Shown here: positions 10,913 through 49,232 of the stretch, in pieces
Layout of the letters: each line of letters begins with the position of its first letter
Numbering within the stretch: position 1 is the stretch's first letter
IMG/VR virus record: IMGVR_UViG_3300045988_159685
DNA length: 64,000 bases
Direction: 5' to 3' (one strand)
Source of the DNA: a virus
The notes under the pieces: generated by a model
What the model saw: the letters and a program-made list of their open reading frames with translations, nothing else
Told to the model about the DNA's origin: nothing
The model's database searches: none
Position numbers and translations under genes: made by a program

Positions 10913-10941
10913 AATTTCTACCTCCTATTTTTTATAATGGC

Positions 10942-11190: not shown

Positions 11191-11291
11191 AAATATATAA
11201 AATGGACACTTTTCAGCCTTGTGGATAACCTACGGTCAAGTTATGACGCACCTTAACCAAACTCAAGGGTTTTGTAAAATCTTAATTGTTG

Positions 11292-11370: not shown

Positions 11371-11377
11371 ATCTTAT

Positions 11378-11419
11378 TACTCGTACAGGAATTGAACCTG
11401 TAATGCAACCAGTCGAGCA
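11378..11419 (-). pseudogene. tRNA-like remnant (acceptor + T-arm minihelix, no anticodon arm, no CCA)
   Basis: The minus strand reads TGCTCGA-CTGGTTGCATT-ACAGG-TTCAATT-CCTGT-ACGAGTA. It resembles the 5' and 3' ends of the Glu-like tRNAs. Confidence 0.35.
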
Positions 11420-11581
11420 ACAAAACATTCCCACAAAAAAGGAATATCATATATCTTCGTATAGACTACGATAGCTATTACTTATATTTGAGGCCAGATT
11501 TTTATTATTTTACTTTGTGAATATAGCCTAAAACACAAAGGTCATAAAATTAAAGGTTTTCAAAAAGCACCCATTTTTTGC

Positions 11582-12223: not shown

Positions 12224-12277
12224 TTCAAAAACTCCTTTGAATTTTAAAATTTACAGACCTGATTATGCCTGTATTGA

Positions 12278-12337
12278 TGGTGGCTCACACAGGATTTACA
12301 CCTGTACTCTCACTGGGGATAAGAGTCTATTTGAGCC
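12278..12337 (-). pseudogene. 60-nt truncated tRNA-like element (no D-arm), CCA-ended
   Basis: The minus strand reads GGCTCAA-ATAG-ACTCT-(11-nt loop)-AGAGT-ACAGG-TGTAAAT-CCTGT-GTGAGCC-A-CCA. Confidence 0.35.
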
Positions 12338-12390
12338 ATAGCGATGCAAAGCATCGCACTCAGAAAAAGAAGGGAATGCCCAAAACGGGC

Positions 12391-12466
12391 TGGTGACTCA
12401 CGCAGGATTTGAACCATGCAATTCCGCCCTGAGAAGGCGGCGTCTTAACCGTTTGACCAGTGAGCC
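12391..12466 (-). tRNA. tRNA-Glu-like, anticodon CUC (copy B), bulged T-stem
   Basis: GGCTCAC..GTGAGTC-A-CCA. Anticodon stem CCGCC/GGCGG, loop TTCTCAG. The T-arm GCA(T)GG-TTCAAAT-CCTGC needs one bulged nucleotide. Confidence 0.55.
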
Positions 12467-12490
12467 ATAAGGCGGAGAACTCCGCCTATA

Positions 12491-13435: not shown

Positions 13436-13496
13436 AATTTCACCTCCTCTTGTAAAACAAATTGAACATCTTGCTTAGTTAGTAACCTAAATTCTT

Positions 13497-13629
13497 AACG
13501 GAACAAGTTGTTCCTTTAAGAAATATCCATCTTTAATGGGATAAGTTGTTCCTTTAAAAGCACTTGAATAGAGTTTAGACTTTTTTGCTATAATGCCATT
13601 TGAACTAACGGAACATCTTGTTCCTTTAG
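13497..13629 (-). promoter_or_regulatory. three operator-like repeats, TAACGGAACA(A/T)(G/C)TTGTTCCTTTA
   Basis: Palindrome GGAACAAGTTGTTCC at 13500-13514 and GGAACATCTTGTTCC at 13610-13624. A half-degenerate copy AAGTTGTTCCTTTAA lies at 13543-13557 and a partial copy at 13463-13476. Confidence 0.55.
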
Positions 13630-13660
13630 TAATTTTTAAAGATATTAAACTTACCTCTGC

Positions 13661-13834
13661 CTAACATTTAAGACTTATAATAACCGCAATCACCGTTATA
13701 ATCAGATTAAGCAGTGCGCCGATCCACAGTGGTGATACCACCCAAAGCCAACTCCAGCATATAACTTTAGTCAGTTTCAGTATGATAAATACGATAGTAA
13801 GCAGTCCGCAAAAACCAATTCCGCCGCTCTTCAT
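13661..13834 (-). CDS. small membrane protein (57 aa, two hydrophobic segments)
   Basis: Below the ORF-track cutoff. Hand translation gives MKSGGIGFCGLLTIVFIILKLTKVICWSWLWVVSPLWIGALLNLIITVIAVIISLKC. Strong RBS AAGGGAGGG. Confidence 0.5.
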   Translation of the reverse strand: MKSGGIGFCGLLTIVFIILKLTKVICWSWLWVVSPLWIGALLNLIITVIAVIISLKC

Positions 13835-13836
13835 AA

Positions 13837-14070
13837 TTATTCTCCCTCCCTTACAATATGAAATTTATCCACGCCGTAAATAACGCCAAGTGAGCGCCCA
13901 TTGTCAAAATTGCAATGAATCGTACCAGCGTCATCGACATGATCAACCGTTCCAAGCGTATTCGGCTCAACTGGGTATGGATCATCAACCATTTTCTCAA
14001 GGCATATTCTTGTACCCTCGGGGAAAACTCTTTTGAGCCAAGATATCCTCTTGTCATTGTATAAACTCAT
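13837..14070 (-). CDS. DUF4314-like protein
   Basis: FPEGTRICLEKMVDDPYPVEPNTLGTVDHVDDAGTIHCNFDNGRSLGVIYGVDKF matches my recollection of the DUF4314 signature (DDPY..P.GT.GTV..VDD.G.IH..WDNGRSL). ATGA start/stop overlap with the upstream gene. Confidence 0.55.
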   Translation of the reverse strand: MSLYNDKRISWLKRVFPEGTRICLEKMVDDPYPVEPNTLGTVDHVDDAGTIHCNFDNGRSLGVIYGVDKFHIVREGE

Positions 14071-14408
14071 ACCTTGCCTCTTTCAAACTCAATAACACCG
14101 CCATCGGCATCAACGACAACTGGGCGAATTGATAGGATATTTCTTGTGAATAAAAACGCACAGGCTAATGGCACGGCAATAACCGCACTCTCGGGCATAG
14201 CTATAGCCATAACGCCCATAGCAAAGCCGAGAACTTTCTGCATAATCCACAACACTTTGGCTGCTTTTCTTTCAAGTCTGCGGCTTTTATAGCTTTCTAT
14301 GCGCTTTTTAAGCTCTCTTTCTTCTTTGTCACGTTCTTCTGCGTGTTTCATAGATCTGATTAACTTTGTCAGGTCGTATGTATTATGTACGTTTTCAAAA
14401 GCGTCCAT
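14067..14408 (-). CDS. membrane protein (113 aa)
   Basis: RBS GGAGGTG. Charged N-terminal helix followed by two hydrophobic segments (VLGFAMGVMAIAM.., VIAVPLACAFLF). Confidence 0.55.
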   Translation of the reverse strand: MDAFENVHNTYDLTKLIRSMKHAEERDKEERELKKRIESYKSRRLERKAAKVLWIMQKVLGFAMGVMAIAMPESAVIAVPLACAFLFTRNILSIRPVVVDADGGVIEFERGKV

Positions 14409-14481
14409 AAAAACACCTCCATTTTAAAATAATAATAATGATTTTCTGATTACGCCTGAAAATCACCATAAAATCTGGCGT

Positions 14482-14557
14482 TGGTGCGACTTATGGGGCT
14501 TGAACCCATGACCTCCGCATTAAAAGTGCGTTGCTCTACTAACTGAGCTAAAGCCGC
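14482..14557 (-). tRNA. tRNA-Lys (anticodon UUU), copy 2
   Basis: GCGGCTT..AAGTCGC-A-CCA. Anticodon loop CTTTTAA with stem ACGCA/TGCGG (one A-G mismatch). T-arm ATGGG-TTCAAGC-CCCAT. Confidence 0.75.
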
Positions 14558-14650
14558 AAGCGCAGGCATCACACTACATTCCCATATGGTGGGATAAGCA
14601 CTGTACCTGCTATGCCAATTTTCTTTTTGTGTAGCATTGGCAAACTACAC

Positions 14651-14737
14651 TGGTGCCGCTGACGAGACTTGAACTCGTAAGGATTTTACTCCGAGGGTTT
14701 TTAAGACCCTTGTGTATGCCTATTCCACCACAGCGGC
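14651..14737 (-). tRNA. tRNA-Leu (anticodon UAA), type II with long variable arm
   Basis: GCCGCTG..CAGCGGC-A-CCA. Anticodon stem AGGGT/ACCCT, loop CTTAAAA, variable arm CGGAGTAAAATCCTT, T-arm ACGAG-TTCAAGT-CTCGT. Confidence 0.85.
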
Positions 14738-14847
14738 TTGTCTTGCCCACAACCCACAGAAGGCAAGTAATGTACGGCTCATCCGTACTTCCCTACGTAT
14801 TCAGCGACTGATGCCACCGATGCGCGTCTAAGGACTGCGACGTCCTT

Positions 14848-14922
14848 TGGTGACTCGTGCAGGATTCAAACCTACGACTCCGCTCTGAGAAAGCGGTATC
14901 TTAATCACTTGACCAACGAGCC
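14848..14922 (-). tRNA. tRNA-Glu-like, anticodon CUC (copy C), T-loop TTTGAAT
   Basis: GGCTCGT..ACGAGTC-A-CCA. Anticodon stem CCGCT/AGCGG, loop TTCTCAG. T at the position-56 equivalent instead of C. Confidence 0.55.
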
Positions 14923-19806: not shown

Positions 19807-22530
19807 ATGGCATTAAACAAATTATACTATGTGTACGGACTTGATACTGCGTGCCTTTATACACCAGAGGAAAGTGCTATTGAACAAAAAATTATCAAGG
19901 CACGTTGCCTTCGAGCTACGCTCAAAGACAGAATTGCCAAACAAAAGATAACCCCTTGTCTTTGTAAAGGTAAAAAAACTATAGCAAACAAAGACAACAA
20001 AGCCCCATACGTTGGAAAACATCAGAAGCGTCTGCGTTTTCTCAACGATTACATAGCCAGTCATAAAGCATTACTTAAGCAGGAGCTTGCCAAAAATGTA
20101 TCACTCACACGAACCGTGATACCTGACAAGCTCAATATACGTCGCCAGATTTCAATATTTGGCTCTTCCCTTACAAGATATTTCAACCTAAAGGAAAGAG
20201 AGCTTAATGAAGAAATCGTGATTGTAAAAGTTTACTTCTTCGATGTCGCCAAGAGCATTGTGAAGAACGGCTTTTACATGAATGGTCACAAATACGTTTT
20301 CTTCTCAAGTAGTGCGGGGCAAATCAGAACCAAAAAGCTCGTGGCCGTTCGTGAAGATTTACTCAACAAGTATTGGAACGCATTGACGGCAGGCTTGACA
20401 ATTGAAAAGATTAATGAGCAAGGCGGCATGAATGTAAATAAATTTCTTGCCTACCTTGCTCTTTGTAATTCAGCTACTGATTTATGGTGTGACTTCAACA
20501 TTGACGAGTGTATTGTAGTTGACGACTTTGAAACGCTTGTGCATGGTACGGTTGACTTTATAGACGATAAGACCTATAGGATTGAAAGACAAGAAATGAA
20601 TATACCGATCACGCACACCGATGGCTGTGGAATGATACTTCCAGAACTGAGTACAAAAAATTTCATGACAAGATTGCCATGGGTCAAAGGTCTGCTAGCA
20701 AGTTTTGACTTTGTGAAGTTTATCAAGGATAATAATTGCGACCCCGTGATTACTGACGTCTACGGCGATAAGCATAATATCCTTGAGGAAAATATCAAAA
20801 TCATATTTACCAAGAGTCAGTTCAAAATGTGGAAATATTATTCAAACTGGGGTGAATATAAAAACAACTTCAAGAAATATGGAAGCACCGCAGGCAAGTG
20901 TAACATAGAAGAAGGATATATCCCATATGCAACGATCAACTACCAAATGATACAGACACTAATTGATACCACTGACAATGAGATAGCCGCACTTGCTCGT
21001 AAGAGCATGAACGATATTCGCAATCTCGCAACCGATAAAGCAACAATGCTCAAGGTTTTCGGAGCTACAAGCTACAACAAAAATATGAACGGCTTTCAAA
21101 AATGTCTTAAGTTATATCCCGAGCTTTTATCAGACCCATATTCTCGTGCCGCCCTTAAAGACATCAAACATAGCCTTGAGACAGATCAGTGGGCGGCCAA
21201 ATTCAAAACAAGCGGTAAATACACGTTTGTTGTTCCAGACCTTTATGCGTTCTGTGAATATTTATTCTTACATATATCAAATCCTAAAGGACTTTTAAGC
21301 AACGGTGAAGTAAGTTGCAAACTGTTCAAAGATAATATTGAGCTTGATTGTTTACGTTCGCCGCACCTCTACATCGAACATGCCATAAGAACAAATCGTC
21401 ATGTTGACAGTTGGTTTAATACAGATGCAATCTATACAAGTTGTGCCGACTGTATATCGAAAGTTTTGCAGTTCGACAACGACGGTGATAAACTATTGGT
21501 GATTCCAGATGAAACACTAATAAACCTTGCTAAACGAAACTTGCAAAAGTATGACATAGTACCGCTCTTCTATAACATGGCTAAGGCGGGGGCAAAAGAA
21601 CTTACTCCCGATAGCCTGTATGATGGATTAATATGTGCCTACACTGGTGGCAATATTGGCGAAATAAGCAACGCCATTACCAAGGTTTGGAATAGCGGAG
21701 TAATCGACCAAGAAAAAATCAATGTTGTTAAATGGCTTTGTATGGAAAATAACTTCGTCATAGACTACGCCAAGACCTTGTATAAACCCGTTCGTCCTGA
21801 TTGGGTAAACGAAATTATTTCTAAGCACGTCAAGAGCAGAGTTCCACATTTCTTTCAATATGCTAAAGGCAAAGAAACCAATCAAGTAGAAGAAAGAGGT
21901 TTAAACACGGTTGACAGAATTAAGTCGTTGACCCCTATACAAAAGCTTAACTTTAATTTTAAGAACGACAATGTTGGAAAGTTTGATTATAGATTTCTGC
22001 TAAAAAACAAAGAAATTGAAGTCGATGAGAATGTGCTTCAACGCTTTAGGGATATATCAAGCAATCTAAGGTTTTGTGACTCAGATGGAACGGCACTTAA
22101 CTACCAAGCCGTATACGATCAAGCGAAAGAAGAAATGCTTATGCTCGGTCATAACATTGACGATGTTGTAGATATGCTTGTAGAGGATTTATTTCACAGT
22201 AGACGTGTTGAAAAGAAAAAAGCATTTTGGGAAATGTTTGGCGAAGTTGTGTACGAACATTTGTCGAACAATTTATCACAAAATTATATCCAGTGTGCTC
22301 ACTGTCAGAAAAGATTTTATCGTGAAAACTCGAAACAAATTTACTGCAACAAATGTCAAAACAAGAAGTCCATCAAAGCAAATACCAAGATTCTTCAATG
22401 TGCAGGTTGCGGCAAAACCATAACAGTAAGTACAAGATGTCATCGTGAAGCCTACTGCCCTGAGTGTAAAATTCATGCAAGAAATGCGGCAAGACTGAGG
22501 GCGTATTATAAAAATAAGCATCTTGTGTAG
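19807..22530 (+). CDS. YonO/RdRP-like single-subunit two-barrel RNA polymerase (putative) with C-terminal Zn-ribbons
   Basis: 907 aa, RBS AAAGGAGA. FFSSSAGQIRTKK (aa 165-177) resembles the cellular-RdRP/YonO F.FS.SQLR block. CLRSPHLYIEHA followed ~40 aa later by QFDNDGDKL (D557-D561, nt 21475-21489) parallels beta-prime RAPTLHRLGIQAF..NADFDGDQM. The C-terminus carries CAHC..CNKC and CAGC..CPEC. Confidence 0.6.
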   Translation: MALNKLYYVYGLDTACLYTPEESAIEQKIIKARCLRATLKDRIAKQKITPCLCKGKKTIANKDNKAPYVGKHQKRLRFLNDYIASHKALLKQELAKNVSLTRTVIPDKLNIRRQISIFGSSLTRYFNLKERELNEEIVIVKVYFFDVAKSIVKNGFYMNGHKYVFFSSSAGQIRTKKLVAVREDLLNKYWNALTAGLTIEKINEQGGMNVNKFLAYLALCNSATDLWCDFNIDECIVVDDFETLVHGTVDFIDDKTYRIERQEMNIPITHTDGCGMILPELSTKNFMTRLPWVKGLLASFDFVKFIKDNNCDPVITDVYGDKHNILEENIKIIFTKSQFKMWKYYSNWGEYKNNFKKYGSTAGKCNIEEGYIPYATINYQMIQTLIDTTDNEIAALARKSMNDIRNLATDKATMLKVFGATSYNKNMNGFQKCLKLYPELLSDPYSRAALKDIKHSLETDQWAAKFKTSGKYTFVVPDLYAFCEYLFLHISNPKGLLSNGEVSCKLFKDNIELDCLRSPHLYIEHAIRTNRHVDSWFNTDAIYTSCADCISKVLQFDNDGDKLLVIPDETLINLAKRNLQKYDIVPLFYNMAKAGAKELTPDSLYDGLICAYTGGNIGEISNAITKVWNSGVIDQEKINVVKWLCMENNFVIDYAKTLYKPVRPDWVNEIISKHVKSRVPHFFQYAKGKETNQVEERGLNTVDRIKSLTPIQKLNFNFKNDNVGKFDYRFLLKNKEIEVDENVLQRFRDISSNLRFCDSDGTALNYQAVYDQAKEEMLMLGHNIDDVVDMLVEDLFHSRRVEKKKAFWEMFGEVVYEHLSNNLSQNYIQCAHCQKRFYRENSKQIYCNKCQNKKSIKANTKILQCAGCGKTITVSTRCHREAYCPECKIHARNAARLRAYYKNKHLV

Positions 22531-24628: not shown

Positions 24629-24704
24629 TGCGGAGTAGAGAAAAGGTATCTCGCTTGTTTCATAGGCAAGAGATTATTGGTTCGAGTCCAATCTCACGCA
24701 ACCA
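24629..24704 (+). tRNA. tRNA-Met/Ile2-like (anticodon CAU) with a bulged A in the acceptor stem
   Basis: Hand fold: TGCGGAG-TA-GAGA-AAAGGTA-TCTC-G-CTTGT-TTCATAG-GCAAG-AGATT-ATTGG-TTCGAGT-CCAAT-CTC(A)CGCA-A-CCA. All arms are canonical except the extra A on the 3' acceptor strand. Confidence 0.5.
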
Positions 24705-24774: not shown

Positions 24775-25791
24775 ATGTCAAAGGTATCAAAACTTCCGCC
24801 TGTTACGCAGGAAGAGTGGAACAAAGTAAACGACTTTAACAAATTTATATTTGAAGATTTTATAACGAACAGCACAGAGCTATCGCCTAAAACAAAAATT
24901 GCTTATGAGTCAAATTTAAAAATTTGGTTTATTTGGGTCAAAGATAATCTTAATAACAAATCTCAGATCGACATTAAACCTTTAGACTTTAAGCGTTTTC
25001 AAAACTGGATGGTCAACCGTGGTTGTTCAAGTGCAGATTGTGCAAACAAAAGAGCGGCAATTAGCTCGCTTAATAATTACATAGATGTTTACTATAGGGA
25101 CGATTATCCACAATTTCGCAATTTTATTAATAAGAGTATAGCACGACCGCCAAAGGCTTTTGTAAATGAGAAGCAACCACTGACGAAAGAGGAATTTGCA
25201 AATCTTATTTCTGTTCTCGAAAAACGTGGTGATTGGCAAAAGGTTGCCTATCTTAAATTTACATTAGATACAGGATGTCGCCGTGCTGAGAGCATACAAG
25301 TGAAAAAGGATTTTGTAAACATCAAGCCGACCATAAAACACAAAACCCATATTGACGAAAATGGTAACGAAGTAACAAAAGAGATTAAGTATTATGTTAC
25401 CCCTACTATTCGTTGTAAAGGAAAGGGTACGGTTGGTAAAGAAAGAAAGTTTAAATTCTCACAGGATACAATGGATGCATTTAAGAAGTGGATTGAAGTT
25501 AGAGGTGAAGACGATTGCCCAGACATGTTTATTTCTAAATATGCCGGAAAAGTAAAAGGCATAGCAGAGAACACGTTAAACAATTGGGCTACTCATGTAT
25601 TTACACCTATCGTCGGCAGACGCTTTCATCCGCATCTTCTAAGAGAGTCTAAGGCAACTCAGCTTGCAGTCGAAGAAGGAAAAGACATTTCTGTAATCCA
25701 AAGTCTATTAGGCCACGAGTCATCAGAAACTACACAAATTTATATAATCCGTGACGAAACCGATGACCTCGACGAGTTGTTTGAAGAGTAG
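24775..25791 (+). CDS. tyrosine recombinase/integrase (XerC/D-like, with SAM-like N-domain)
   Basis: TGCRRAESIQV (Arg I), HPHLLRES (HxxR), LGHESSETTQIY (H..Y). RBS AAAGGAGA. Confidence 0.8.
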   Translation: MSKVSKLPPVTQEEWNKVNDFNKFIFEDFITNSTELSPKTKIAYESNLKIWFIWVKDNLNNKSQIDIKPLDFKRFQNWMVNRGCSSADCANKRAAISSLNNYIDVYYRDDYPQFRNFINKSIARPPKAFVNEKQPLTKEEFANLISVLEKRGDWQKVAYLKFTLDTGCRRAESIQVKKDFVNIKPTIKHKTHIDENGNEVTKEIKYYVTPTIRCKGKGTVGKERKFKFSQDTMDAFKKWIEVRGEDDCPDMFISKYAGKVKGIAENTLNNWATHVFTPIVGRRFHPHLLRESKATQLAVEEGKDISVIQSLLGHESSETTQIYIIRDETDDLDELFEE

Positions 25792-39343: not shown

Positions 39344-42300
39344 ATGGCAGGATATATAGGCGACGTAAATATTAGGGTCAATGCCGACCTTAATACTAAG
39401 GATATGGAAAGGGTCTTGAAAGATTTCACCCCTACCATTGAAATAGAGCCCAAGGCAGATAAGTTAAAGAAATCACTTGAAAATGAATTAACCAAAGCTT
39501 TTGCAAAAGTTAAAGACCTAAAAGACGAATTTGATAATTCTACTTTTAAAGCAGACAAAACCAATTACAACTTTTCGCAGTTCTTTGATACCTTTAATAG
39601 CAGTCAAATTTATGGTAAGGGTAACAAAGATAAAATACAGAACAGGCTTAACTACTATATAAAGAAAGCAAATGAAATGCACGATGTTGCTCAAAGGCTT
39701 TCTAATAGCAAACTCGAGTTTGACACCTCTTTATCGTCACTTGGTTTAAGTTATAGTGACATTGGGCTATCTGAAGATCAACAGCAGTGGTTAAAATCCG
39801 TTGAAAAATCTTACGAGACTGCGGCACAAAAAGCGCATAAAGTAATAAATGGAGTTATATCTCGATATAACAAAGAACATCCTGATGATAGCTTGCAGAT
39901 AAATCCATTAAATGCGAACTTCGGCGATGTATCAAAACTATATACAACAAGTTTACAAACGTCTATAAAAACAGCATTTAAAAGAATTAATGCTACGGGA
40001 TTAGATCCAAGTAAACTTAGTACAAAAGATATAGACTTACAAACCAAGAGACTATCTGATGTTATTCCGCTAATGCAGACACTTAACAAATTCTCCAAAA
40101 AAGATATGGTTAAGTATAGATTTGATGGGGATACAGATAAAAGTGTTGTTACCATTGCCCGTGTAAAAGAACTATTAAAAGACTTTGAGTATTATTGGAA
40201 AGAAGCAACGGTTTCTCAAAAAGAGCAAGTCAAAGATAAACAGTTAAGCAAATCTGAAGAAAAAGAAGTTTCTAATGAGGTTTATGTTGAACAGCTTGAA
40301 AAGCGTGTATCTGAATTAAAGCAGGAAAACTTAAAGCTTGAAAATGACAAAAAGAGGTTTGCGGCAAAAAAAGAAGATACTGGTGGCAAATCATCTGATG
40401 ATAATAAAAGCCTCAAATTAGAAAATGAAAAATTAAAAAAAGAAAATTCTGAATTGTCTGAGTTTATGGCTAACATACAAGATAAACAACAAGACCCAGG
40501 TGATGATTCTGGCAACGGCAGTCCCTCAGAGGGTGGCGAAGTTAGCGAGGGAGGCGTATCACTTTCAAGGTTTGAGGCAATCAAAGGGCTGCTCAAATCC
40601 CGTGACATTTCTTTAAACAACAAAAAGAAACAAGTTGAAGTTTTAAACAAGAAAATTAAAGAGCTTGAAAAAAAAGCCAAGTCTAGCGGCAAAGCTACGC
40701 TAAAAGATAGCGACGGCAACACTGGTATATCTGGAGTTGATGGCGAAAATTCTGGCGATAAAACAGACGAGGAAAGCACAAAACTAAAAGCCAATCTCGA
40801 GGCTCTTAAGAGACAATATGAAAAGTCAAAATCAGATTATGAGAACAACAAAAAGCTTTCCGAAGAGCTTAAAGGCTTAATTGATAAAGCCGAACAATCA
40901 CAACAAGGTGGCTCGGGCAATATCTCAAAAGAAGCCTTAGAACAGTTCAAGACTGAGATTGAAAAAGTATGTTCTTCAATTAAAATAGGCGAATTCGATT
41001 ACGCTGAAGCTTTAGAAAAACTTAGGCAAGCATTAAAAAATGAAGCAGTAGATATTAATGTCGGCAACTTGAAAACTGCAAGTAAACCAACAGCCGATTC
41101 TGCTTCAAGCCCGCAAAAGAGAGTTACAAGAAAACCGTCGGCTAAAAGCGATAAATCAGATAATACCACTGAGGATGACCAATATTGGAAAGAAAAGTTT
41201 AAAGCCAATATTGAAGAACGCACAAGTGAACAATCTCCACAGGAACTGAAAGACTACTTCAAGGCCGTGTCTCAAATATCACAAGAAATTGATAAGTCGA
41301 TGAAGTCAATCAATAGCACAGCTGATAGCTTGATAAAAAAATCTGGTACAAAATCACAGCAATCACAAAGTAAGAACTTGGGTTTATCTAGTGAATATTC
41401 GGCAATACAATCTCAGGCGGCTAGCATTCAAGAGCAGATTGAAAGTATAAAGCAAGAACTGTTAAATCCTGATGCTGACACTAACTCAATAACATTCTTC
41501 AAAAATATAGACGAACAAGTTAAAGAGCTTTATGCAGACTTAGAAGTTATTCAAGATCAATATAATGATACTACTAAGAAATTCGACGAATTAAATAATG
41601 CTTATAAAACCGATACAGCGGCACAACGAATTAAGAAGAAAGCTTCTACGTTATTGAATCAATATGTATCGTTTAAAGATATAAATAGTAACGCCTTCAA
41701 ACAGAATGATGCTTTGTCAGCACAATGGGACGAATGGTATAACAAGCTTAAAAATCCAGATTTGCTTGATGCGAAAGAAATTGATAAAGCCGATGCAAAG
41801 CTCAAGGAAATGCGTGCTACCGTAAAAGATCTAGGAATTGGTGGTAAAACAGCTGGCGAATTGATTTCTAATATGTTCAAAAAGTACGGCGGCTGGGCAA
41901 TCGTTACTAGGTCAATGGTATATGTAAAATCTGTACTGAGAGATATATACCAAGCAACCAAAGATGTAGATACCTCAATGGTCAATCTTAAAAAGGTTAG
42001 TAACGAAACGGCGGCATCATATGATGCGTTTCTAACAAATGCGGCAAAAAAGTCAAAAGAACTTGGTGTTTCAATAAGTGACTTGGTGGATTCGACTTCT
42101 GAGTTCTCAAGACTCGGCTATAACCTCAAAGACGCAACCAAGCTCGGCGAACTTGCAACAATGTATTCCAATGTTGCCGAAGATTTAAGTGTAACCGACG
42201 CCGCCTCTTCAATCATTTCGACAATGAAGGCGTATGATATTGCCGCAGACGATGCACAAGAAATCGTAGATAAGTTTAACTATGTAGGCAACAACTTTGC

Positions 42301-43084
42301 CATTTCTTCCACTGGACTTGGTGACAGCTTACAACGTTCTGCTTCTGCTTTGGTTGCCGCAGGAAACAGCCTTGACGAAACCATCGCACTTACAACGGCG
42401 GGCAATGCTATTGTTCAAGACCCTGAAAAAATGGGCACTGTTCTTAAGACGGCTTCGGCTAGATTAAGAGGAGCAACAGCCGAACTTGAGGAAATGGGCG
42501 AAGAAACAGACGATGTAGCAAACGGCACAGCAAAGCTACGTCAGGAGATACTTGCTCTTTCTGGCGTTGACATCATGAAGAATGATAATACCTTTAAAGG
42601 CACATATCAAATTCTTGACGAGATATCGAAAGTATATGGCAGCCTTTCAGACGTAAATCAGGCGGCACTGCTTGAACAAATTGGTGGCAAAAACGGCATT
42701 AACGTAATCGCCGCAGTATTATCCAATTTTGACGAAGCAAGAGAAGTCATGAGTACCATTGGTGGTTCCAAGGGTTCGGCTTCTGAAGAAATGGAAAAAT
42801 CACTTGACTCTATAACAGGTAAGCTTGGAAAACTTAGTGCTATATTCCAAGATATATCCACAAAGGCGTTAGAGTCAGACACAGTTAAATCGTTCTTAGA
42901 TATTCTTATCGGTATAGGTAATGCAATATCTAAGCTTATACCTAGCCTTAATACTGTGCTTAAAATTGGCGGAGCAATTGGTGCGGGAGCATTAGGTGCA
43001 AAAGGTATTAATATAGGTGCGGGTGAACCCATAAAACACAGGGTTCCACTGAGTATGCCCGCAAGCATAATGGTAATACCATAA
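39344..43084 (+). CDS. tail tape measure protein, part 1 (coiled-coil + TP901-type core + hydrophobic Gly/Ala tail)
   Basis: 1246 aa with very long K/E-rich coiled coil. The core region KKVSNETAASYDAF..SEFSRLGYNLKDAT..MYSNVAEDL..SSTGLGDSLQRSASALVAAGNS..TTAGNAIVQDPEKMGTVLKTASARLRG is typical of TP901-family TMPs. Confidence 0.8.
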   Translation: MAGYIGDVNIRVNADLNTKDMERVLKDFTPTIEIEPKADKLKKSLENELTKAFAKVKDLKDEFDNSTFKADKTNYNFSQFFDTFNSSQIYGKGNKDKIQNRLNYYIKKANEMHDVAQRLSNSKLEFDTSLSSLGLSYSDIGLSEDQQQWLKSVEKSYETAAQKAHKVINGVISRYNKEHPDDSLQINPLNANFGDVSKLYTTSLQTSIKTAFKRINATGLDPSKLSTKDIDLQTKRLSDVIPLMQTLNKFSKKDMVKYRFDGDTDKSVVTIARVKELLKDFEYYWKEATVSQKEQVKDKQLSKSEEKEVSNEVYVEQLEKRVSELKQENLKLENDKKRFAAKKEDTGGKSSDDNKSLKLENEKLKKENSELSEFMANIQDKQQDPGDDSGNGSPSEGGEVSEGGVSLSRFEAIKGLLKSRDISLNNKKKQVEVLNKKIKELEKKAKSSGKATLKDSDGNTGISGVDGENSGDKTDEESTKLKANLEALKRQYEKSKSDYENNKKLSEELKGLIDKAEQSQQGGSGNISKEALEQFKTEIEKVCSSIKIGEFDYAEALEKLRQALKNEAVDINVGNLKTASKPTADSASSPQKRVTRKPSAKSDKSDNTTEDDQYWKEKFKANIEERTSEQSPQELKDYFKAVSQISQEIDKSMKSINSTADSLIKKSGTKSQQSQSKNLGLSSEYSAIQSQAASIQEQIESIKQELLNPDADTNSITFFKNIDEQVKELYADLEVIQDQYNDTTKKFDELNNAYKTDTAAQRIKKKASTLLNQYVSFKDINSNAFKQNDALSAQWDEWYNKLKNPDLLDAKEIDKADAKLKEMRATVKDLGIGGKTAGELISNMFKKYGGWAIVTRSMVYVKSVLRDIYQATKDVDTSMVNLKKVSNETAASYDAFLTNAAKKSKELGVSISDLVDSTSEFSRLGYNLKDATKLGELATMYSNVAEDLSVTDAASSIISTMKAYDIAADDAQEIVDKFNYVGNNFAISSTGLGDSLQRSASALVAAGNSLDETIALTTAGNAIVQDPEKMGTVLKTASARLRGATAELEEMGEETDDVANGTAKLRQEILALSGVDIMKNDNTFKGTYQILDEISKVYGSLSDVNQAALLEQIGGKNGINVIAAVLSNFDEAREVMSTIGGSKGSASEEMEKSLDSITGKLGKLSAIFQDISTKALESDTVKSFLDILIGIGNAISKLIPSLNTVLKIGGAIGAGALGAKGINIGAGEPIKHRVPLSMPASIMVIP

Positions 43085-43380
43085 TCGAGGTATTATTATT
43101 ATGACAGGCAAAAAAGTATAAATTGACTACTTAGTAGTAACGGGTTTGATAATTCCCGTTCGGGGATGGTAATATTCAATTCTATCACACTTTTTTGAAT
43201 ATGAGAGTATCCGCATCCAAACCGATCGGCGTAAGTTTGTCGCATAATACATAATCGGCTTAACGATCGGCAGGTTCAGAGACTATAATTGCTTATTGGT
43301 GTTCTGCGATAGTGAACACTGGTTATTGGATAGTCCACGGTGTAGTTGTCGGATAGACGGCAATAAAAATTATAAAACTG

Positions 43381-43409
43381 TTGACTTCTGTAATATTATG
43401 TGATATAAT
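43381..43409 (+). promoter_or_regulatory. consensus sigma70-type promoter of the plus-strand moron unit
   Basis: TTGACT, 17-nt spacer, TATAAT, with upstream TGTGA. Confidence 0.65.
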
Positions 43410-43439
43410 GGAATAAAAATATTATAGGAGTTGTTAATT

Positions 43440-43625
43440 ATGTCTAAAGAAAATAACAAAGAAAATCAAAATAAGAATATCAACGAGAGCGTTTCACATG
43501 AACCAATAGTGGAAATCAATGTTAGAAGGAATTATTCGTATGTTCCAATCGACAGCGATATTAGCGAAAGACCACCTATTCCTACTGTTGATATTGATAA
43601 GAATAAAAAGGAGAATGACGGTTGA
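43440..43625 (+). CDS. small acidic/Asn-rich protein (61 aa)
   Basis: ATG 43440 follows TAGGAG. The stop overlaps the TTG start of the next ORF (TTGA). Confidence 0.45.
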   Translation: MSKENNKENQNKNINESVSHEPIVEINVRRNYSYVPIDSDISERPPIPTVDIDKNKKENDG

Positions 43626-44287
43626 CCGAAATTATTTCATACTTACCAAATATAATTATTTATCTAGTCTTGGGCTTTGTTTTTATTAAAGTCTTTAGAT
43701 TTGTTTATATAGAAGAAAGCCCAAATGATAGTCAACATATACTTACCGAATCTCTCATATATGGTTTTATTCTCCAAAATATCTACTCGGCTTTTCCAAT
43801 TAGTATTAACACTTATATTGACATAATAGGAATGGTTTTGTCTACAGTAATAATAGCATATTTTCTTGCTAAATTTATATATAGTAAACTATTTAGCAAA
43901 ATACTTGCTAAATTAAAAATACAACAAACGCCGATTAAAGATTTTTGGATTGATATAACACATTCAAAAGAGCGAACATATATAACCGTTTATGATAAAG
44001 AGTTCGATCGAGTTATAAATGGAAGATTTGCTAGAGCTGAAACATTTAATAAAAGACCACTCATACAGCTATCGGAATATATTATAAAAAATACACGGGG
44101 CGATATAATATTCGATATGTCTCTTAACACTGCCGACACTATTGTTATTGATACGTCTAAATACCCCGAAATCATGTTATCACATCCACAACCAAAAGAT
44201 AAAAAGAAATCTGAAGAATCACAGTCTAAACACAACCCAATAAAGTCAATATTAAACAAAATAAAAACTAAATTTCATCATGACTGA
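43622..44287 (+). CDS. membrane protein (3 N-terminal TM segments + ~120-aa soluble C-domain), function unknown
   Basis: TTG start coupled to the upstream stop. Hydrophobic segments IIIYLVLGFVFIKVF, LIYGFILQNIYSAF and IIGMVLSTVIIAYFLA. Confidence 0.55.
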   Translation: MTEIISYLPNIIIYLVLGFVFIKVFRFVYIEESPNDSQHILTESLIYGFILQNIYSAFPISINTYIDIIGMVLSTVIIAYFLAKFIYSKLFSKILAKLKIQQTPIKDFWIDITHSKERTYITVYDKEFDRVINGRFARAETFNKRPLIQLSEYIIKNTRGDIIFDMSLNTADTIVIDTSKYPEIMLSHPQPKDKKKSEESQSKHNPIKSILNKIKTKFHHD

Positions 44288-44315
44288 AAAAGCTCCGAGT
44301 TTCCTCGGAGCTTTT
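44287..44315. terminator. bidirectional rho-independent terminator between convergent moron units
   Basis: AAAAA-AGCTCCGAG-TTTC-CTCGGAGCT-TTTT. 9-bp perfect stem with A-run and T-run flanks. Confidence 0.75.
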
Positions 44316-44316
44316 G

Positions 44317-44922
44317 TTATAGAAAGAGTTTTATTTTCCAAATGGATATATCGTTTAATCGTTTATATCCGTCGTCTTTTAATTGCTTGTTAAGGGCAAG
44401 CTTTACATATGGCATATCTTCGGATTCGCATATATGTGATGCAATCGTATAATCAATATCTTTATCTACGGCTTCGTCATTGTATGAGCAATCAAATTCT
44501 GCTATATTAATTTGATGCTTTAACAAATCACAATGAGACAGTTTGTCCAAAGTGCCGTAATAACTACATCTTATATTGGGGTCGATCTCCTCTTCGTCAA
44601 TGTCCTTACTATTAAGCGTTCGGGCATTTACCGTAAGATACTTTCCAACTCGCAGGTTGATATCAACATTGATACGCTTTTCTCCATCGTCGAATGTAAT
44701 ATCTTTTCTAAATGCACTAACATTTGAAATGTCCACTTCTTTGTCGAGGTCTTTTTCAATCTTCTGAATAAGAAGTAATACAAATCGTTCATCATCACTT
44801 AGAATTACCTTCTTAAGTTGAGGCTTAAAAAATACTAACGAAGTAATCGAAGCTATGATAAGACAAAATATTATAATGAGCACAATAAACAATTTTTTAT
44901 GTTTTAAAAACAATCTTTTCAT
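44317..44922 (-). CDS. signal-anchored (N-terminal TM) protein, paralog of 44943-45512
   Basis: ATG 44922 follows AGGTGAGG. N-terminus MKRLFLKHKKLFIVLIIIFCLIIASITSLVFF. C-terminus DISIWKIKLFL. Confidence 0.6.
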   Translation of the reverse strand: MKRLFLKHKKLFIVLIIIFCLIIASITSLVFFKPQLKKVILSDDERFVLLLIQKIEKDLDKEVDISNVSAFRKDITFDDGEKRINVDINLRVGKYLTVNARTLNSKDIDEEEIDPNIRCSYYGTLDKLSHCDLLKHQINIAEFDCSYNDEAVDKDIDYTIASHICESEDMPYVKLALNKQLKDDGYKRLNDISIWKIKLFL

Positions 44923-44942
44923 TTTTACCTCACCTATCAGCA

Positions 44943-45512
44943 TCAGGAAAATAACTTAATTTTCCAAAGGGAGAAATCTGTTATTTCCTCGCAATCATCA
45001 TCAAGACGACGTTTGACACCACTTTTTACATGTTCATCAATATTGTCAACTTGGGCATAGCCGACTTCATCACCATTTATATCTTTCTTATTTGGTAAAT
45101 CGTACTGCTCTATGATATCTTGAGAACCCCAATAAAAATGACCAACATAAAGAGAAAAACTACCATTATAAATATCTTCTATGGCCTGTGATTCAGAAAT
45201 ACTTACATGTCGTATGAAAGAAATTTCTAATCCGTCATCTGTAATGATATACAAATATGTTCGAGAGTTCAACCAGTCATCATTTGATTTTTCTGATTTT
45301 GTTTCAAGACATTTAATATCTTGAATAGATATATCTTTATCAGTTTCTTCCTTAACTGTGGCTACACAGTTGATTATAAACTTTTCATTATCATTCAAGA
45401 TATAACTTGCTATTTGTTTTTTAAACACCATAAAAGTAATAATCAGTAAAATTATTAGACCTACTATTAATAACAAAACAACTTTTATCTTTCGTAACTT
45501 TGCGTTCTTCAT
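44943..45512 (-). CDS. signal-anchored (N-terminal TM) protein, paralog of 44317-44922
   Basis: N-terminus MKNAKLRKIKVVLLLIVGLIILLIITFMVF. C-terminus DFSLWKIKLFS. Confidence 0.6.
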   Translation of the reverse strand: MKNAKLRKIKVVLLLIVGLIILLIITFMVFKKQIASYILNDNEKFIINCVATVKEETDKDISIQDIKCLETKSEKSNDDWLNSRTYLYIITDDGLEISFIRHVSISESQAIEDIYNGSFSLYVGHFYWGSQDIIEQYDLPNKKDINGDEVGYAQVDNIDEHVKSGVKRRLDDDCEEITDFSLWKIKLFS

Positions 45513-45545
45513 AAGTATTGCCCCTATCTGTTTTTTTATATTAAG

Positions 45546-45574
45546 ATTATATCACAGATTTTACCACTTGTCAA
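45546..45574 (-). promoter_or_regulatory. consensus sigma70-type promoter of the minus-strand moron unit
   Basis: The minus strand reads TTGACA, 17-nt spacer, TATAAT, with the same TGTGATATAAT as the 43381 promoter. Confidence 0.7.
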
Positions 45575-45653
45575 TAGATTTACACCGATACTCAAAAAAA
45601 TAAAGTCTATTCCAAGTGATATTAAGGATAATCTTTCTGGGTTAAAATCACAA

Positions 45654-48600
45654 TTGTCGCTGTTTACCACAGAAGAAGCTGAACAGCAATTGAACGATTT
45701 TATTGATAAAGTCAAAGTTGGCGGCATGAGTGTCAAAGATTATTTCAATAATCCCGTCAATAGTGGAAAAACAATTTTAAAGGGTTATGTGCGTGAAGTA
45801 GATGAAGCCTCTATGAGTGTAGAAGGTTTCACTCGTTACGGAAAAGAACTGACGAGTCAATTTGATAAAATGAATACCAAGGGTGGCATTGCCTCACTCA
45901 TTTTTAAAGACATAGGTTCTATGGCTCTCAAAGCCTTACCAACATTAATCGTTACTGGTATTGGGGTTGCCATTGATTATTTTGTCAATAAAGCCGAACG
46001 AGCAAAAGAAAAAGCCGATGAACTTAGTGAAGAATTAAATAATTCATTAAGTAGCTACAATGACAGTTTGTCACAGGTATCTGGGTATGAAAAGGAATTT
46101 AACAAGCTTGCTAAAGGTGTTGATAACTTTGGAAATAATCTTTCATTGACCAATGACGAATATGACCGTTACAAAGACCTGTCAAACGACATCGCAAAAA
46201 TCAATCCTAGTTTAATAAAAGGATACGACGACGAAGGCAATGCTATCATAAACAAAAATAACGCCATAAGAGATACTATCAGCTTATTAAAAGAACAGCG
46301 AAAATTAGATATACTAAAAATGTTATCAGAAGATAACATAGAGGCTGTATCTGACGGATTAGATGCTAAGATTTCTGATACAAGAAAAGAAATGAACAGT
46401 CTGGCAACAAGATTTATTAAATATCCAGATAACATAAAAAGTGCAATTGAGAATTTCGACACAATAGCTGATGGTTTAGGTGACAATTTTTCTAACGAAT
46501 ATAGTGAGATATTAGGAGCCTTTGACAATTACAACAAAGTCGGCGACAAATATAAATTTAAAACCTACTATGAAAATCAAGATGAAGTTCATAACCTTGT
46601 ACAAAAACTACTTAGCTACAAAACTGATAATGAAAGCTTGTCAAAATCACTTGAACAGTATCAAAAAGAGTTGTCAGATTCTTACGACCAATTGCAAAAA
46701 GCATTAAACAACACAGATAATGTCAACCTCTACAAGCAAATTGACAGTGAAATGCAAAGTTATACAAAAACGTATGATACATATTTGCAGGCATATCTTA
46801 CTACTTTGGACGGATATGATGAACTTACAAGTGGCGAGCAGAACATTCTTTCCTCGTTAGTGTCAAACTTTGAATTAGATGTAGAAAGTAATACCAAAGA
46901 CTTTGACGAGCAATATGCCGACGAAGTGCAAAAGATCAATTCATTCTATGCTAATTTGAAAAATGGAGTAGATAATCATGGCGTACCGCTTTCTGTTTCT
47001 TTGGATATACTAACAAATTTGGATACAACACAAACCGTTTCAGAATATGAAAAGCAAATGGAAACTGCACTAAAAAATATTGCTAATTCCGACTTTGCAA
47101 AAAACCAAGGTCTTTCAATCGACGATATCAAAGTCATGCTTGGTTTCTCATTTGAGACAAACGATAACGAGATAGAGGATGGGCTTACAAACAAGATTGA
47201 GAATATTGCCACTCGTGTTGTGAATCGGATACCGTCGTTGGCTGGCAACCAAAATGGTCAAGCAATTATTGAAGGCTTGCTTAAAAATCTTACCCCAGAT
47301 AACATTGACACTTTAATGGATACCAGCCTTGACAAAATAAATTCATGGCAAGATGTTCTCGATCTCTTAAATGCAAAAACCACATTTAGCCTTGCTGACT
47401 ACTCCGAGGATGTTGACAACGTTCAAAGCAAAATTGCCGCACTTGCTTCTGCGTATAAGGAAATTCAAGACGGCACTTTTGAAGTTGGTAGTAGTGGATG
47501 GGAACTCGTTAAAAGTTATGGGGAATTTCTTCCATACCTTGACGACACAAATGGCGGCTTTGAAGAACTCGGTAAGAAAATCAAAGAAGCAATGGGTATT
47601 GCTCCAAACGACCTGATTAAGCAACTTTCTCAACTTAAAGGTTTGAGTGACGCCGATCAAAAATCTGTAAATAATCTTATCAAAGTCCTCTATAAAATGA
47701 AAGATGTTAGCCTTTCAAATCTTACTTCAGACGGATTACTGACCGCCGAGAAGAATCAAGTACAAGCAATAATTGATAAGATAAATGATAAGAAAGACAA
47801 AGAACAGGAATACCTCGATACGCTTCAAGAAGAGGAAGATACTTTAAATGATATCATTGACAAATATCAGACCGCTGGTGATACTGCTATTGATTATATT
47901 GAAAAAGAAATCAGTAGTCTTGAGGATTCTCGTGACGATGTAGAGTCATATTACGACGACCTTATTGATAAACTCAAAGAGGAAAATGACGAACGTGATA
48001 GAGCCATTGAGTTGCAGGAAAAGCAAGACGCTGTAGCTAATGCAAAAAAGAAAAAGGTTGCTATCTATAGCGAAGCAAGTAGCTGGCATTTAGAAACCAA
48101 CTCCGACGAGGTTGAAAAGGCACAACAGGAACTTGATTCACTACAAAACGAAATAGCTATTGACAATCTTGAAAAAGAGAAAGAGGCTGCTATGCAACCT
48201 TATACCGATCAAATTGAGGCATTTGAAAAGTATAAGCAAGCATGGAGCGATGCTATGAGTGCCTATACAAACAACCAGAATGAAATGATTGCGCAACAAA
48301 TTTTAGGTATAGATTGGCAGGGTAAACTTCACAATCAGGATATCGGTATTCTTAACAAATATCAAACTGATTATAGCGGTTATCAAACTAAACTCAAAGA
48401 TAATGTTCAAAAAGAGAAAGAGATTATTCAAAACCGCATTGACCAATATGCAAAAGAAGCAGATGAGTGGGAGAAGTATCTCAAACAATTTGATACATTC
48501 GTTTCCGATTTATCTGACCAAGACGTTAAATACTTTGAAGAACTTAAACTCAAAACACTTAATGAAAAGAGTACATACCAAGAGCGACTTGATGCTTTGC

Positions 48601-49232
48601 GTGAATTTAAAGCCGATTATATTCAGCTATCAGATGACCTGGCACAATATGAGGGCACCTCTATAAAGAAAGCTTTGTCTGGTAGCGGCGTATATGCTGT
48701 CGAAAAAGATAACGCAATTCTTGGTGCATACACCACCAAAAAGGAAGCCGACAAAGCCATGTATAAGTTTGCGGGGCAAATGATAAGTGAAAAGGTTTCA
48801 ATGCTCGGTGGCTTGAGTAATATCAGTGTAACCAAGCTTGCGGAACTACAAAAGGAGATACGCTCAAAATTCAAGGTAAAGCAGTATGCGACGGGTGGAG
48901 TTAATAGCTACACGGGAACGGCTATGCTACACGGAACACCATATAAGTCTGAGGTAATCTTTAATTCTTCAGACGCCAAGAAACTCTATGACATTGTACA
49001 CAATACTCGCAATGTTGCAAGCGTTGTTGGTAAGACTATAGGTGACAATCTTGTAAGTGGTACGCAGGCGGCTGGATCAATGTTCACAACAAATGATACC
49101 ACTAATGGTGATACCACAATTACATTTAGAATTGGCGAAATTCATACTACCGACGGCACAACATTCTTACAGCAAATGAATGACTATTTGAAGCAAGCAG
49201 ACCGTGACCGCATGATAGGTAGAAACAGATAA
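45654..49232 (+). CDS. tape-measure-like protein, part 2 (hydrophobic N-region, long coiled-coil, TMP-type C-terminus)
   Basis: 1192-aa ORF ending in KQYATGGVNSYTGTAMLHGTPYKSEVIFNS, which resembles TMP C-terminal blocks. No RBS at the 5' end. The frame is open from 45498, the first canonical start is TTG 45654 and the first ATG is 45726. Confidence 0.6.
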   Translation: MSLFTTEEAEQQLNDFIDKVKVGGMSVKDYFNNPVNSGKTILKGYVREVDEASMSVEGFTRYGKELTSQFDKMNTKGGIASLIFKDIGSMALKALPTLIVTGIGVAIDYFVNKAERAKEKADELSEELNNSLSSYNDSLSQVSGYEKEFNKLAKGVDNFGNNLSLTNDEYDRYKDLSNDIAKINPSLIKGYDDEGNAIINKNNAIRDTISLLKEQRKLDILKMLSEDNIEAVSDGLDAKISDTRKEMNSLATRFIKYPDNIKSAIENFDTIADGLGDNFSNEYSEILGAFDNYNKVGDKYKFKTYYENQDEVHNLVQKLLSYKTDNESLSKSLEQYQKELSDSYDQLQKALNNTDNVNLYKQIDSEMQSYTKTYDTYLQAYLTTLDGYDELTSGEQNILSSLVSNFELDVESNTKDFDEQYADEVQKINSFYANLKNGVDNHGVPLSVSLDILTNLDTTQTVSEYEKQMETALKNIANSDFAKNQGLSIDDIKVMLGFSFETNDNEIEDGLTNKIENIATRVVNRIPSLAGNQNGQAIIEGLLKNLTPDNIDTLMDTSLDKINSWQDVLDLLNAKTTFSLADYSEDVDNVQSKIAALASAYKEIQDGTFEVGSSGWELVKSYGEFLPYLDDTNGGFEELGKKIKEAMGIAPNDLIKQLSQLKGLSDADQKSVNNLIKVLYKMKDVSLSNLTSDGLLTAEKNQVQAIIDKINDKKDKEQEYLDTLQEEEDTLNDIIDKYQTAGDTAIDYIEKEISSLEDSRDDVESYYDDLIDKLKEENDERDRAIELQEKQDAVANAKKKKVAIYSEASSWHLETNSDEVEKAQQELDSLQNEIAIDNLEKEKEAAMQPYTDQIEAFEKYKQAWSDAMSAYTNNQNEMIAQQILGIDWQGKLHNQDIGILNKYQTDYSGYQTKLKDNVQKEKEIIQNRIDQYAKEADEWEKYLKQFDTFVSDLSDQDVKYFEELKLKTLNEKSTYQERLDALREFKADYIQLSDDLAQYEGTSIKKALSGSGVYAVEKDNAILGAYTTKKEADKAMYKFAGQMISEKVSMLGGLSNISVTKLAELQKEIRSKFKVKQYATGGVNSYTGTAMLHGTPYKSEVIFNSSDAKKLYDIVHNTRNVASVVGKTIGDNLVSGTQAAGSMFTTNDTTNGDTTITFRIGEIHTTDGTTFLQQMNDYLKQADRDRMIGRNR

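Follow-up and report, generated by a model that had tools for sequence, protein, structure and literature searches.

In a 64,000-nucleotide (nt) stretch of viral DNA (IMG/VR record IMGVR_UViG_3300045988_159685; hereafter the window, on which all positions and strands are given unless another locus is named), the gene for the tape measure protein (TMP) of an SPbeta-like phage appears as two long open reading frames (ORFs) with further genes between them. The anatomy of the interval suggests that positions 43025 to 45587 on the plus strand, 2563 nt in all, are a cis-splicing group I intron that carries cargo genes, a reading to which we assign a probability of roughly three in four. We infer splicing from three sets of features: the geometry of the P1 and P10 helices and of the terminal guanosine (omega-G), the R and S motifs of a ribozyme core, and the existence of intron-less homologues. 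Given this anatomy, the expected product is a single 2441–amino acid (aa) TMP translated from spliced mRNA, which would answer how the second half of the protein is made without a ribosome-binding site.

The two halves of the tape measure gene and their relatives

An ORF scan confirmed that the gene region contains two ORFs of more than 1100 aa, as an earlier note on this DNA had described: an upstream ORF at 39344 to 43084 (plus strand, 1246 aa, ATG start), here called part 1, and a downstream ORF at 45654 to 49232 (plus strand, 1192 aa, TTG start), here called part 2. The two lie in different frames, and the length of the 43025 to 45587 interval is of the form 3n + 1. The TP901-type TMP core that had been noticed from the sequence alone in part 1 was recovered as PF10145 (PhageMin_Tail) at residues 903 to 1115 (E = 7.5e-24). 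No Pfam family was found for part 2, which, read from 45588, matched phrog_4211 (“tail length tape measure protein”) over profile positions 961 to 1450 of 2625 (E = 2.4e-23), that is, the middle of a long TMP. The placement of the gene is that of a TP901-type TMP, with a YomN-family gene just upstream and a tail protein gene (phrog_1887) downstream. The frame of part 2 is open from 45498 and its first ATG is at 45726; as reported earlier, no Shine-Dalgarno sequence precedes either this ATG or the TTG at 45654.

That DNA is inserted between the two ORFs was borne out, while the limits first proposed for it, 43085 and 45653, were not; the functional boundaries are predicted at 43024|43025 and 45587|45588. 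Part 1 ends with 19 codons (EPIKHRV...MVIP) that represent read-through into the predicted intron. At the other end, protein conservation of part 2 begins 5′ of the TTG, in the FTPILK region (45579), and predicted exon 2 begins with ILKKIK at 45588. Exon 1 would thus span 39344 to 43024 (plus strand), with 1227 codons that include the PF10145 core and end in GINIGAG, and exon 2 would span 45588 to 49232 (plus strand), with 1214 codons and a stop, beginning ILKKIKSIPSD. When 43024 was joined to 45588, a single open ORF of 2441 aa resulted.

Distant relatives were collected with a profile of the TMP core. Most of them carry one uninterrupted TMP, which reaches 1460 to 2700 aa beyond the start of the matched region, and BLASTP alignments of the joined product with the uninterrupted TMPs of loci L067, L065, and L046 run from residues ~620 to 830 to residues ~1460 to 1490, crossing the 1227/1228 junction. 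The 1508-aa protein annotated as TMP in Enterocloster phage PMBT24 matches part 1 and then part 2. These comparisons, of the kind that had been proposed at the outset, agree with the suggestion that one ancestral TMP of about 2400 aa was interrupted. Across the break, uninterrupted homologues read KNVG-IFSSLKSD, KGVG-IFGDLDNEF, and KNLG-TIKGNISN, a general pattern of ...G-(I/T)(F/I)..., with which the joined window sequence GINIGAG-ILKKIKSIPSD agrees. Distant part-1 homologues are conserved up to (K/I)N(V/I)G(AG) and then continue for 9 to 20 mutually unrelated residues; three of them are identical through SFKNVG and wholly different beyond it. Unrelated tails past a conserved glycine are the usual signature of exon read-through into an intron.

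Among the 80 closest TMP relatives in IMG/VR, approximately 21 break at the same codon as the window and resume 1 to 6.3 kb later. The interrupted pattern is also present in Clostridia genomes; a scan of GTDB representative genomes returned Clostridia relatives only and did not recover the window’s own clade. Close relatives from IMG/VR and metagenome assemblies are all split, with 2.6 to 4.6 kb between the TMP halves, and no intron-less copy was found among near-identical contigs. The end of part 1, the noncoding stretch that follows it, and, where present, the cargo gene ORF221 (see below) share 96 to 100% DNA identity in these relatives, even where part 2 has only 76% protein identity. Part 2 is intact in every variant, at 76 to 100% amino acid identity. 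A blastn search of positions 41500 to 47500 against GenBank phages gave no match.

A predicted guide sequence matches both exons in six lineages

The predicted internal guide sequence (43050 to 43063, plus strand) consists of UGAGUAU at 43050 to 43056, which would form P10, and GCCCGCA at 43057 to 43063, which would form P1. The P1 helix has 7 base pairs (bp) between the last nucleotides of exon 1 (UGCGGGU, 43018 to 43024) and GCCCGCA, with a U43024·G43057 wobble; the guide strand lies 33 nt downstream of the end of exon 1, and the loop between them contains a GAACCC...GGGUUC hairpin (43025 to 43046, plus strand). The P10 strand is the exact complement of AUACUCA at 45588 to 45594, giving 7 bp that abut P1. 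The candidate omega-G is G45587, directly before exon 2, and the junction is in frame: the predicted spliced sequence reads ...GGUGCGGGU|AUACUCAAAA, with the junction peptide GINIGAGILK. The U·G pair of P1 falls where homology to uninterrupted TMPs stops, and the P10 target falls where it resumes. When splice sites were limited to this homology break, the combined P1 and P10 score was reached by none of 2000 shuffled sequences.

Covariation between guides and exons across lineages is a stronger argument than the shuffle controls. The six guide sequences differ from one another, and at this one TMP codon each is complementary to the exons of its own lineage. The window and L009 share the sequences given above. 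In L013, the P10 guide UUUUGAAUAU faces the exon 2 start AUGUUCAAAA, and the P1 guide GCCGACA faces the exon 1 end UGUCGGU. The corresponding P10 pairs are AUUGUUUGAAUGU with AUGUUCAAACAAU in L015, AACCGAAUAU with AUAUUCGGUU in L084, CAAAUAC with GUAUUUG in L082, and UGAAUAU with AUAUUCG in L024; the P1 pairs, guide first and exon 1 end second, are GCCGAC with GUCGGU in L015, GCCUA with UAGGU in L084, GCCCGC with GCGGGU in L082, and GCCCGAGU with GCUCGGGU in L024. The junction peptides predicted for these lineages (...G|IL, G|MF, G|IF, and G|VF) agree with the uninterrupted homologues. Since complementarity to both exons would otherwise not be maintained in six lineages, splicing has probably been retained.

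Two further observations concern the guide. In L008, near position 7355 (equivalent to window position 43051), a G-to-U change turns the P10 strand UGAGUAU into UUAGUAU with exon 2 unchanged, shortening P10 from 7 to 5 bp. Within the intron of the window, the stretch UUUUUUGAAUAUGAGAGUA (43191 to 43209) is 79% complementary to the 3′ splice-site region at 45581 to 45599 and could be a competitor of the guide sequence or of the P9.0-like helix described below.

A candidate ribozyme core lies at the 5′ end of the predicted intron

The predicted ribozyme core occupies the first ~340 to 350 nt of the intron. Its 3′ half (43274 to 43336, plus strand) contains an R element, GUUCAGAGACUAUAA, at 43274 to 43288 and an S element, GGAUAGUCC, at 43328 to 43336, whose P7 strands GACUAU (43281 to 43286) and AUAGUC (43330 to 43335) are complementary. 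A P8 hairpin of 7 to 9 bp (43298 to 43320) stands between R and S. The R...S pattern, taken from the consensus of Rfam family RF00028, occurs once in the 64 kb, 250 nt past the 5′ splice site, and in none of 100 shuffled sequences. Constrained folding yielded a candidate P3 of canonical topology, in which UUGCUU (43289 to 43294) pairs with AGGCAA (43106 to 43111). The latter opens a candidate P4-P6 region (43106 to 43273, plus strand) with several hairpins, delimited from the constrained fold and from alignment to our own covariance model, R1. The long hairpin assigned to P2 (43066 to 43103, plus strand) holds the stop codon that ends part 1 (43082 to 43084), which appears to be fortuitous.

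A relative interrupted at the same site, L084, contains a full-length match to Rfam Intron_gpI (60.7 bits against a gathering score of 50). Its 3′ splice site is 1.5 kb past the core, behind two minus-strand genes.

Two other classes of element were considered for the window. A group II intron was rejected on reading the sequence: there is a GUGCG at 43018, but nothing resembling domain V was found near the 3′ end, and the 5′ noncoding part is too short. A split intein was rejected because inspection revealed no intein motifs in either half.

Pairing across the cargo could deliver the distant 3′ splice site

The cargo follows the ribozyme core and precedes the 3′ splice site. After P7, the strand GGUGUA (43339 to 43344), followed by a P9 hairpin at 43346 to 43363 (together 43339 to 43363, plus strand), is complementary to UACACC at 45581 to 45586, and the resulting P9.0-like helix would end next to the omega-G. 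This 3′ element (45581 to 45587, plus strand) is invariant in both exon-2 variants, whose proteins are 76% identical. At the 3′ splice site, approximately 26 nt show no change where the sequence to either side has diverged; across variants, conservation is 96 to 100% both in the initial 348 nt of the intron and in the final ~75 nt that lead up to exon 2.

A more extensive duplex between 43337 to 43412 and 45540 to 45587 was predicted at −30.8 kcal/mol, compared to −14.3 ± 3.1 kcal/mol for shuffled sequences, none of which (0 of 500) reached the native value. Over 37 nt, the promoters of the two cargo units form an inverted repeat with 73% complementarity, and the plus-strand transcript of each makes one arm of this closing stem (5′ arm, 43381 to 43409; 3′ arm, 45546 to 45574). 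As predicted, the closing duplex would shut the 2.1-kb cargo loop and bring the 3′ splice site beside the core.

The cargo consists of exchangeable genes on both strands

A noncoding stretch of ~355 nt precedes the rightward cargo promoter (43381 to 43409, plus strand), a near-consensus sigma-70 site (TTGACT-17-TATAAT with TG, 11 of 12 positions). It is followed by ORF61 (43440 to 43625, plus strand; genes of this length, 61 aa, were called on many contigs) and by ORF221 (43622 to 44287, plus strand), which encodes a membrane protein with three to four helices and a beta domain. The leftward promoter (45546 to 45574, minus strand) is a perfect TTGACA-17-TATAAT site with TG (12 of 12). Downstream of it are a 189-aa gene (44943 to 45512, minus strand) and its 208-aa paralogue (44317 to 44943, minus strand; 25% identity), the latter with an N-terminal membrane anchor and the C terminus ...SIWKIKLFL. 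The two units converge on a bidirectional hairpin resembling an intrinsic terminator (44287 to 44315), with a perfect 12-bp stem and U/A runs on both sides; an Rfam match to the rimP leader aligns to this stem.

The four cargo proteins of the window gave no significant match in Pfam, PADLOC, PHROGs, or NCBIfam. Neither a homing endonuclease nor a transposase was detected among them or among 20 scanned cargo ORFs of relatives. ORF221 is a member of a family of membrane proteins, ~200 aa long, that comprises ~270 clusters; its AlphaFold model is mediocre (predicted local distance difference test score of 66), and the beta domain is only weakly Sm/LSm-like.

Cargo content varies between near-identical phages. 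Between conserved brackets, 2.2 to 4.6 kb of DNA are swapped or expanded, the variants having a set of one to three paralogues on the minus strand, an additional gene of 132 aa, a replacement of ORF221 that is 56% identical to it, or four more plus-strand genes. The cargo thus has the features of prophage “morons” as far as these can be predicted from sequence: its own promoters, a terminator hairpin, and variable content. The cargo of more distant loci includes GmrSD_N/NsnA-like genes (L013, L015, and L055), a weakly AbiQ-like gene (L084), and aspartyl-protease-like genes.

Two gene families recur on the minus strand. Zinc-ribbon genes beside the 3′ splice site of relatives form one family: double zinc-ribbon genes are nearest to that site in L023 (10457 to 10993), L028 (10424 to 10957), L082 (10936 to 11523), L084 (11218 to 11733), L042 (13844 to 14305), L053 (12092 to 12547), and L064 (14895 to 15383), all on the minus strand. 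Their products are mutually related (E = 1e-5 to 1e-29), some with membrane helices, in lineages that are themselves unrelated, and may be an ancestral component of cargo-bearing introns. In the window’s clade, the minus-strand paralogues share 22 to 37% identity, an N-terminal membrane anchor, and the C terminus (F/I)SLWKIKLF. This membrane-anchored family is present in one to three tandem copies (window 44317 to 45512, minus strand; L007 5574 to 7389; L009 9253 to 9846), and the difference in copy number between near-identical phages suggests diversifying selection, e.g., for superinfection exclusion.

Parts of the cargo were also observed in other arrangements. In L272 and L273 (6802 to 7609), among the tail genes of another phage and outside a TMP intron, an ORF of 61 aa precedes a homologue of ORF221 (39% identical); the two genes therefore seem to travel together as a module. 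In L270, the cargo promoter sequence is repeated before successive cargo modules (6760 to 6838 and 7636 to 7720), which would provide homology for cassette shuffling by recombination. L082 carries a FuFi-1 RNA (RF02986, 61.8 bits, above the gathering score) at 10506 to 10749 on the minus strand, antisense within the predicted TMP intron.

Phage context

A plus-strand gene at 19807 to 22530 encodes a 907-aa protein that matches Pfam RdRP (PF05183, E = 2.7e-13) and stands at the head of the plus-strand late block. Such a match is characteristic of YonO-like RNA polymerases, which are single-chain, two-barrel enzymes, and marks the phage as SPbeta-like. Other SPbeta-like markers found in the clade or its relatives are the YomN, YomU_Tube, YomW, and YonB families. 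Rfam identified eight tRNA genes, seven along the minus-strand early region (9851 to 14922) and one on the plus strand at 24630 to 24700. The latter is just upstream of a tyrosine-integrase gene (24775 to 25791) and may relate to the attachment site.

Weighing the intron against alternative explanations

Several results weigh against an intron in the window. RF00028 did not match it even at E ≤ 10 in a 451-nt search, and the outcome was negative at three scales. Hand and constrained folding of P4-P6 gave three incompatible models with several competing pairings. P4-P6 covariation is absent because every available copy of the core is 98 to 100% identical, the only copies that nhmmer searches of the fetched loci and a pattern scan of IMG/VR returned. 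Our model R1 matches the window at 40.4 bits in what is largely a circular test, and we discount it since six of its seven training sequences were chosen by the window’s R and S motifs and its consensus structure has only 20 base pairs. In a wide splice-site search, the P1 and P10 score was reached by 13 of 300 shuffled sequences, so its significance depends on the positions defined by homology. With a crude choice of segments, the closing stem was not significant in L084, L013, L015, L082, or L024. Finally, the plus-strand terminator-like hairpin and the convergent antisense transcription could hinder synthesis of a continuous pre-mRNA, although read-through of the internal terminator by the phage polymerase is plausible. 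As to Rfam, eight other viral loci with the same R and S motifs were also without a match, and a 2025 study of Bacillus phage introns describes phage intron groups as under-represented in available covariance models (PMC11878797).

The earlier note had seen either a damaging cassette that left part 2 orphaned or a genuine two-protein tape measure; the group I intron anatomy, with the single TMP that it leads us to expect, speaks against both. In the two-protein case, the intron would be a relic that no longer splices, and parts 1 and 2 would be translated separately and co-assemble in the tail lumen. This could explain why an ATG occurs at or beside the exon-2 boundary in L013, L015, and L084 and, in frame, five codons upstream of it in the L009-type variant, and why the two-ORF layout is stable over hundreds of metagenomic contigs. 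It is at odds with the window itself, where no ATG, GTG, or TTG was found near the conserved N terminus of part 2, and with the lack of a Shine-Dalgarno sequence for part 2 in any lineage examined. No relative has two genes without an insert and with a good ribosome-binding site before the second. In addition, the tails of part 1 are unconserved read-through, and the match of six different guides to six different pairs of exons would not have been kept up in a relic. We consider separate translation unlikely.

Alternatively, the cassette, with or without a decayed intron, may have killed the TMP, leaving a cryptic element that supplies cargo genes to its host. Most occurrences are indeed on bacterial contigs of 0.2 to 0.6 Mb, i.e., as prophage. 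Nevertheless, both exons remain open over their 1227 and 1214 codons in all variants, with no stop even where exon 2 has diverged to 76% identity; the element is also present on IMG/VR viral contigs of ~90 kb; and the architecture recurs in several unrelated phage lineages. A defective prophage is thus an improbable explanation.

The strong hairpin at 44287 to 44315 raises the question of trans-splicing, in which the upstream transcript would stop at this internal terminator, exon 2 would be transcribed separately together with the final portion of the intron, and the two RNAs would pair through the ~35-bp stem. The long complementary stem does link the two intron halves, and there is a promoter-like site on the plus strand at 44425 to 44453 (10 of 12 positions). 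Yet no convincing plus-strand promoter was found close to exon 2, no stem is detectable in the other lineages, and late transcription of the SPbeta YonO type yields one long operon transcript. To our knowledge, trans-splicing group I introns have been reported only from some organelle genomes. Trans-splicing in the window is accordingly quite improbable. Removal of the cassette at the DNA level, through site-specific recombination that precedes late expression, would resemble what happens to the skin and SPbeta elements in host sporulation genes; such a mechanism is known for gene-interrupting prophage-like elements of Bacillus (PMC5499854). It is highly improbable here: the cargo encodes no recombinase, the junctions have no flanking direct repeats, and near-identical contigs include no intron-less copy.

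Discussion

The cis-splicing, cargo-bearing intron that we favor can be cast as the following model. The phage would be an SPbeta-like temperate siphophage of a gut Firmicute, with its TMP gene broken at codon 1227/1228. During lytic growth, the late operon would be transcribed through the whole interval, probably by the YonO-like RNA polymerase. In the transcript, the guide sequence would align exon 1 through P1, with the U·G wobble positioned at the 5′ splice site, and exon 2 through P10, while the P9.0-like helix and the ~35-bp stem of inverted promoter sequences would bring the 3′ splice site, 2.2 kb beyond the core, to the ribozyme. Excision of the intron would leave one TMP of 2441 aa (~268 kDa), and no peptide from EPIKHRVPLSMPASIMVIP would be expected. 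Tail length would then be set by ~2440 residues, which corresponds to ~360 nm at 0.15 nm per residue, an SPbeta-like scale. The cargo would form two converging, self-promoted units, an arrangement seen in prophage morons capable of expression in the lysogen. The intron would thereby serve as a neutral harbor for accessory genes in an essential late gene, with contents exchanged by recombination.

Group I introns in TMP genes have a precedent in prophages of the Bacillus cereus group, whose TMP genes hold TMP-IVS1 to TMP-IVS3 (Tourasse & Kolsto 2008, PMC2504315). There, too, the TMP exceeds 1200 aa, the hosts are Firmicutes, insertion follows a U, P1 and P10 are fitted to local exons, different introns occupy one site, and some copies are without a complete homing endonuclease gene. 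Those introns are compact or endonuclease-bearing, whereas the elements described here hold 2.2 to 4.6 kb of non-endonuclease genes. In the window, these genes have their own promoters and terminator, are on both strands, and separate the core from the 3′ splice site. Further differences are the site of insertion and the host clade, here SPbeta-like phages of gut Clostridia. Some relatives are interrupted elsewhere in the gene. The TMP genes of L248, L251, and L255 (~186 to 260 codons into the matched TMP core) and of Thomasclavelia phage TR-TP1 (L002; 6720 to 8355 and 10535 to 12046) are broken at other sites, inside or after the PhageMin_Tail core. HNH endonucleases are annotated in the TR-TP1 inserts, the first of which begins with sequence resembling the L084 ribozyme. 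Introns seem to have targeted the TMP gene repeatedly.

The order of parts is that of IStrons such as CdISt1 and BcISt1, in which a 5′ ribozyme is followed by kilobases of unrelated genes, the 3′ splice site, and a closing stem (PMC4227781). In the window, the ribozyme would span 43025 to ~43372 and the cargo would extend to 45545, with a linking stem, and both kinds of element are found in Clostridia and their phages. IStron cargo consists of IS200/IS605- or IS607-type transposons (TnpA/TnpB) that are mobile to many sites; in contrast, the window element has no detected transposase, occupies one conserved codon of one gene, and carries promoter-driven accessory genes, partly antisense. A 5′ core with a distant 3′ splice site is likewise known from the T4 nrdD (sunY) intron, whose core is wholly upstream of the intron ORF and whose far-downstream 3′ splice site is defined by P9.0 and P10. 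Unlike the window element, the T4 intron has one sense-strand homing endonuclease gene, no antisense genes, and no internal terminator.

With prophage morons and defense hotspots, the cargo shares autonomous promoter-gene-terminator units in a late structural operon and a content that varies among otherwise identical phages. Such units are normally located between genes, whereas those of the window are inside the coding sequence of an essential gene, a position that is apparently tolerated because the RNA around them is intronic. SPbeta itself has a very long TMP, YomI, and YonO, of which the window encodes a relative; unlike the window TMP, SPbeta yomI is a single uninterrupted gene. In the literature that we searched, there was no group I intron with promoter-driven accessory or defense-type cargo on both strands that is exchanged between near-identical phages.

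We tentatively propose, holding it less firmly than the intron itself, that an intron at one conserved TMP codon is a heritable “safe harbor” across several lineages of SPbeta-like gut phages. Its cassettes would be expressed in the lysogen from their own promoters on both strands, have roles in defense or superinfection exclusion, and be excised, as RNA, from the TMP message; in the window’s clade, the inverted promoters may also form the stem that returns the 3′ splice site. The arrangement is probably under-reported in gut viromes, since such TMPs emerge from gene calling as two “hypothetical” proteins and the intron class goes unrecognized by Rfam.

An essential tail gene that is cut, with a second half that cannot be translated, is an apparent paradox that a spliced message would resolve without a new decoding mechanism, and one 2441-residue protein is predicted to set the length of the tail. 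Phage group I introns may have a largely overlooked role as neutral insertion platforms, on which prophages could hold and reshuffle accessory or defense genes in a long, tightly packed late operon. If this is true, self-splicing introns would offer phages a general way to place cargo within essential genes and to exchange it there.

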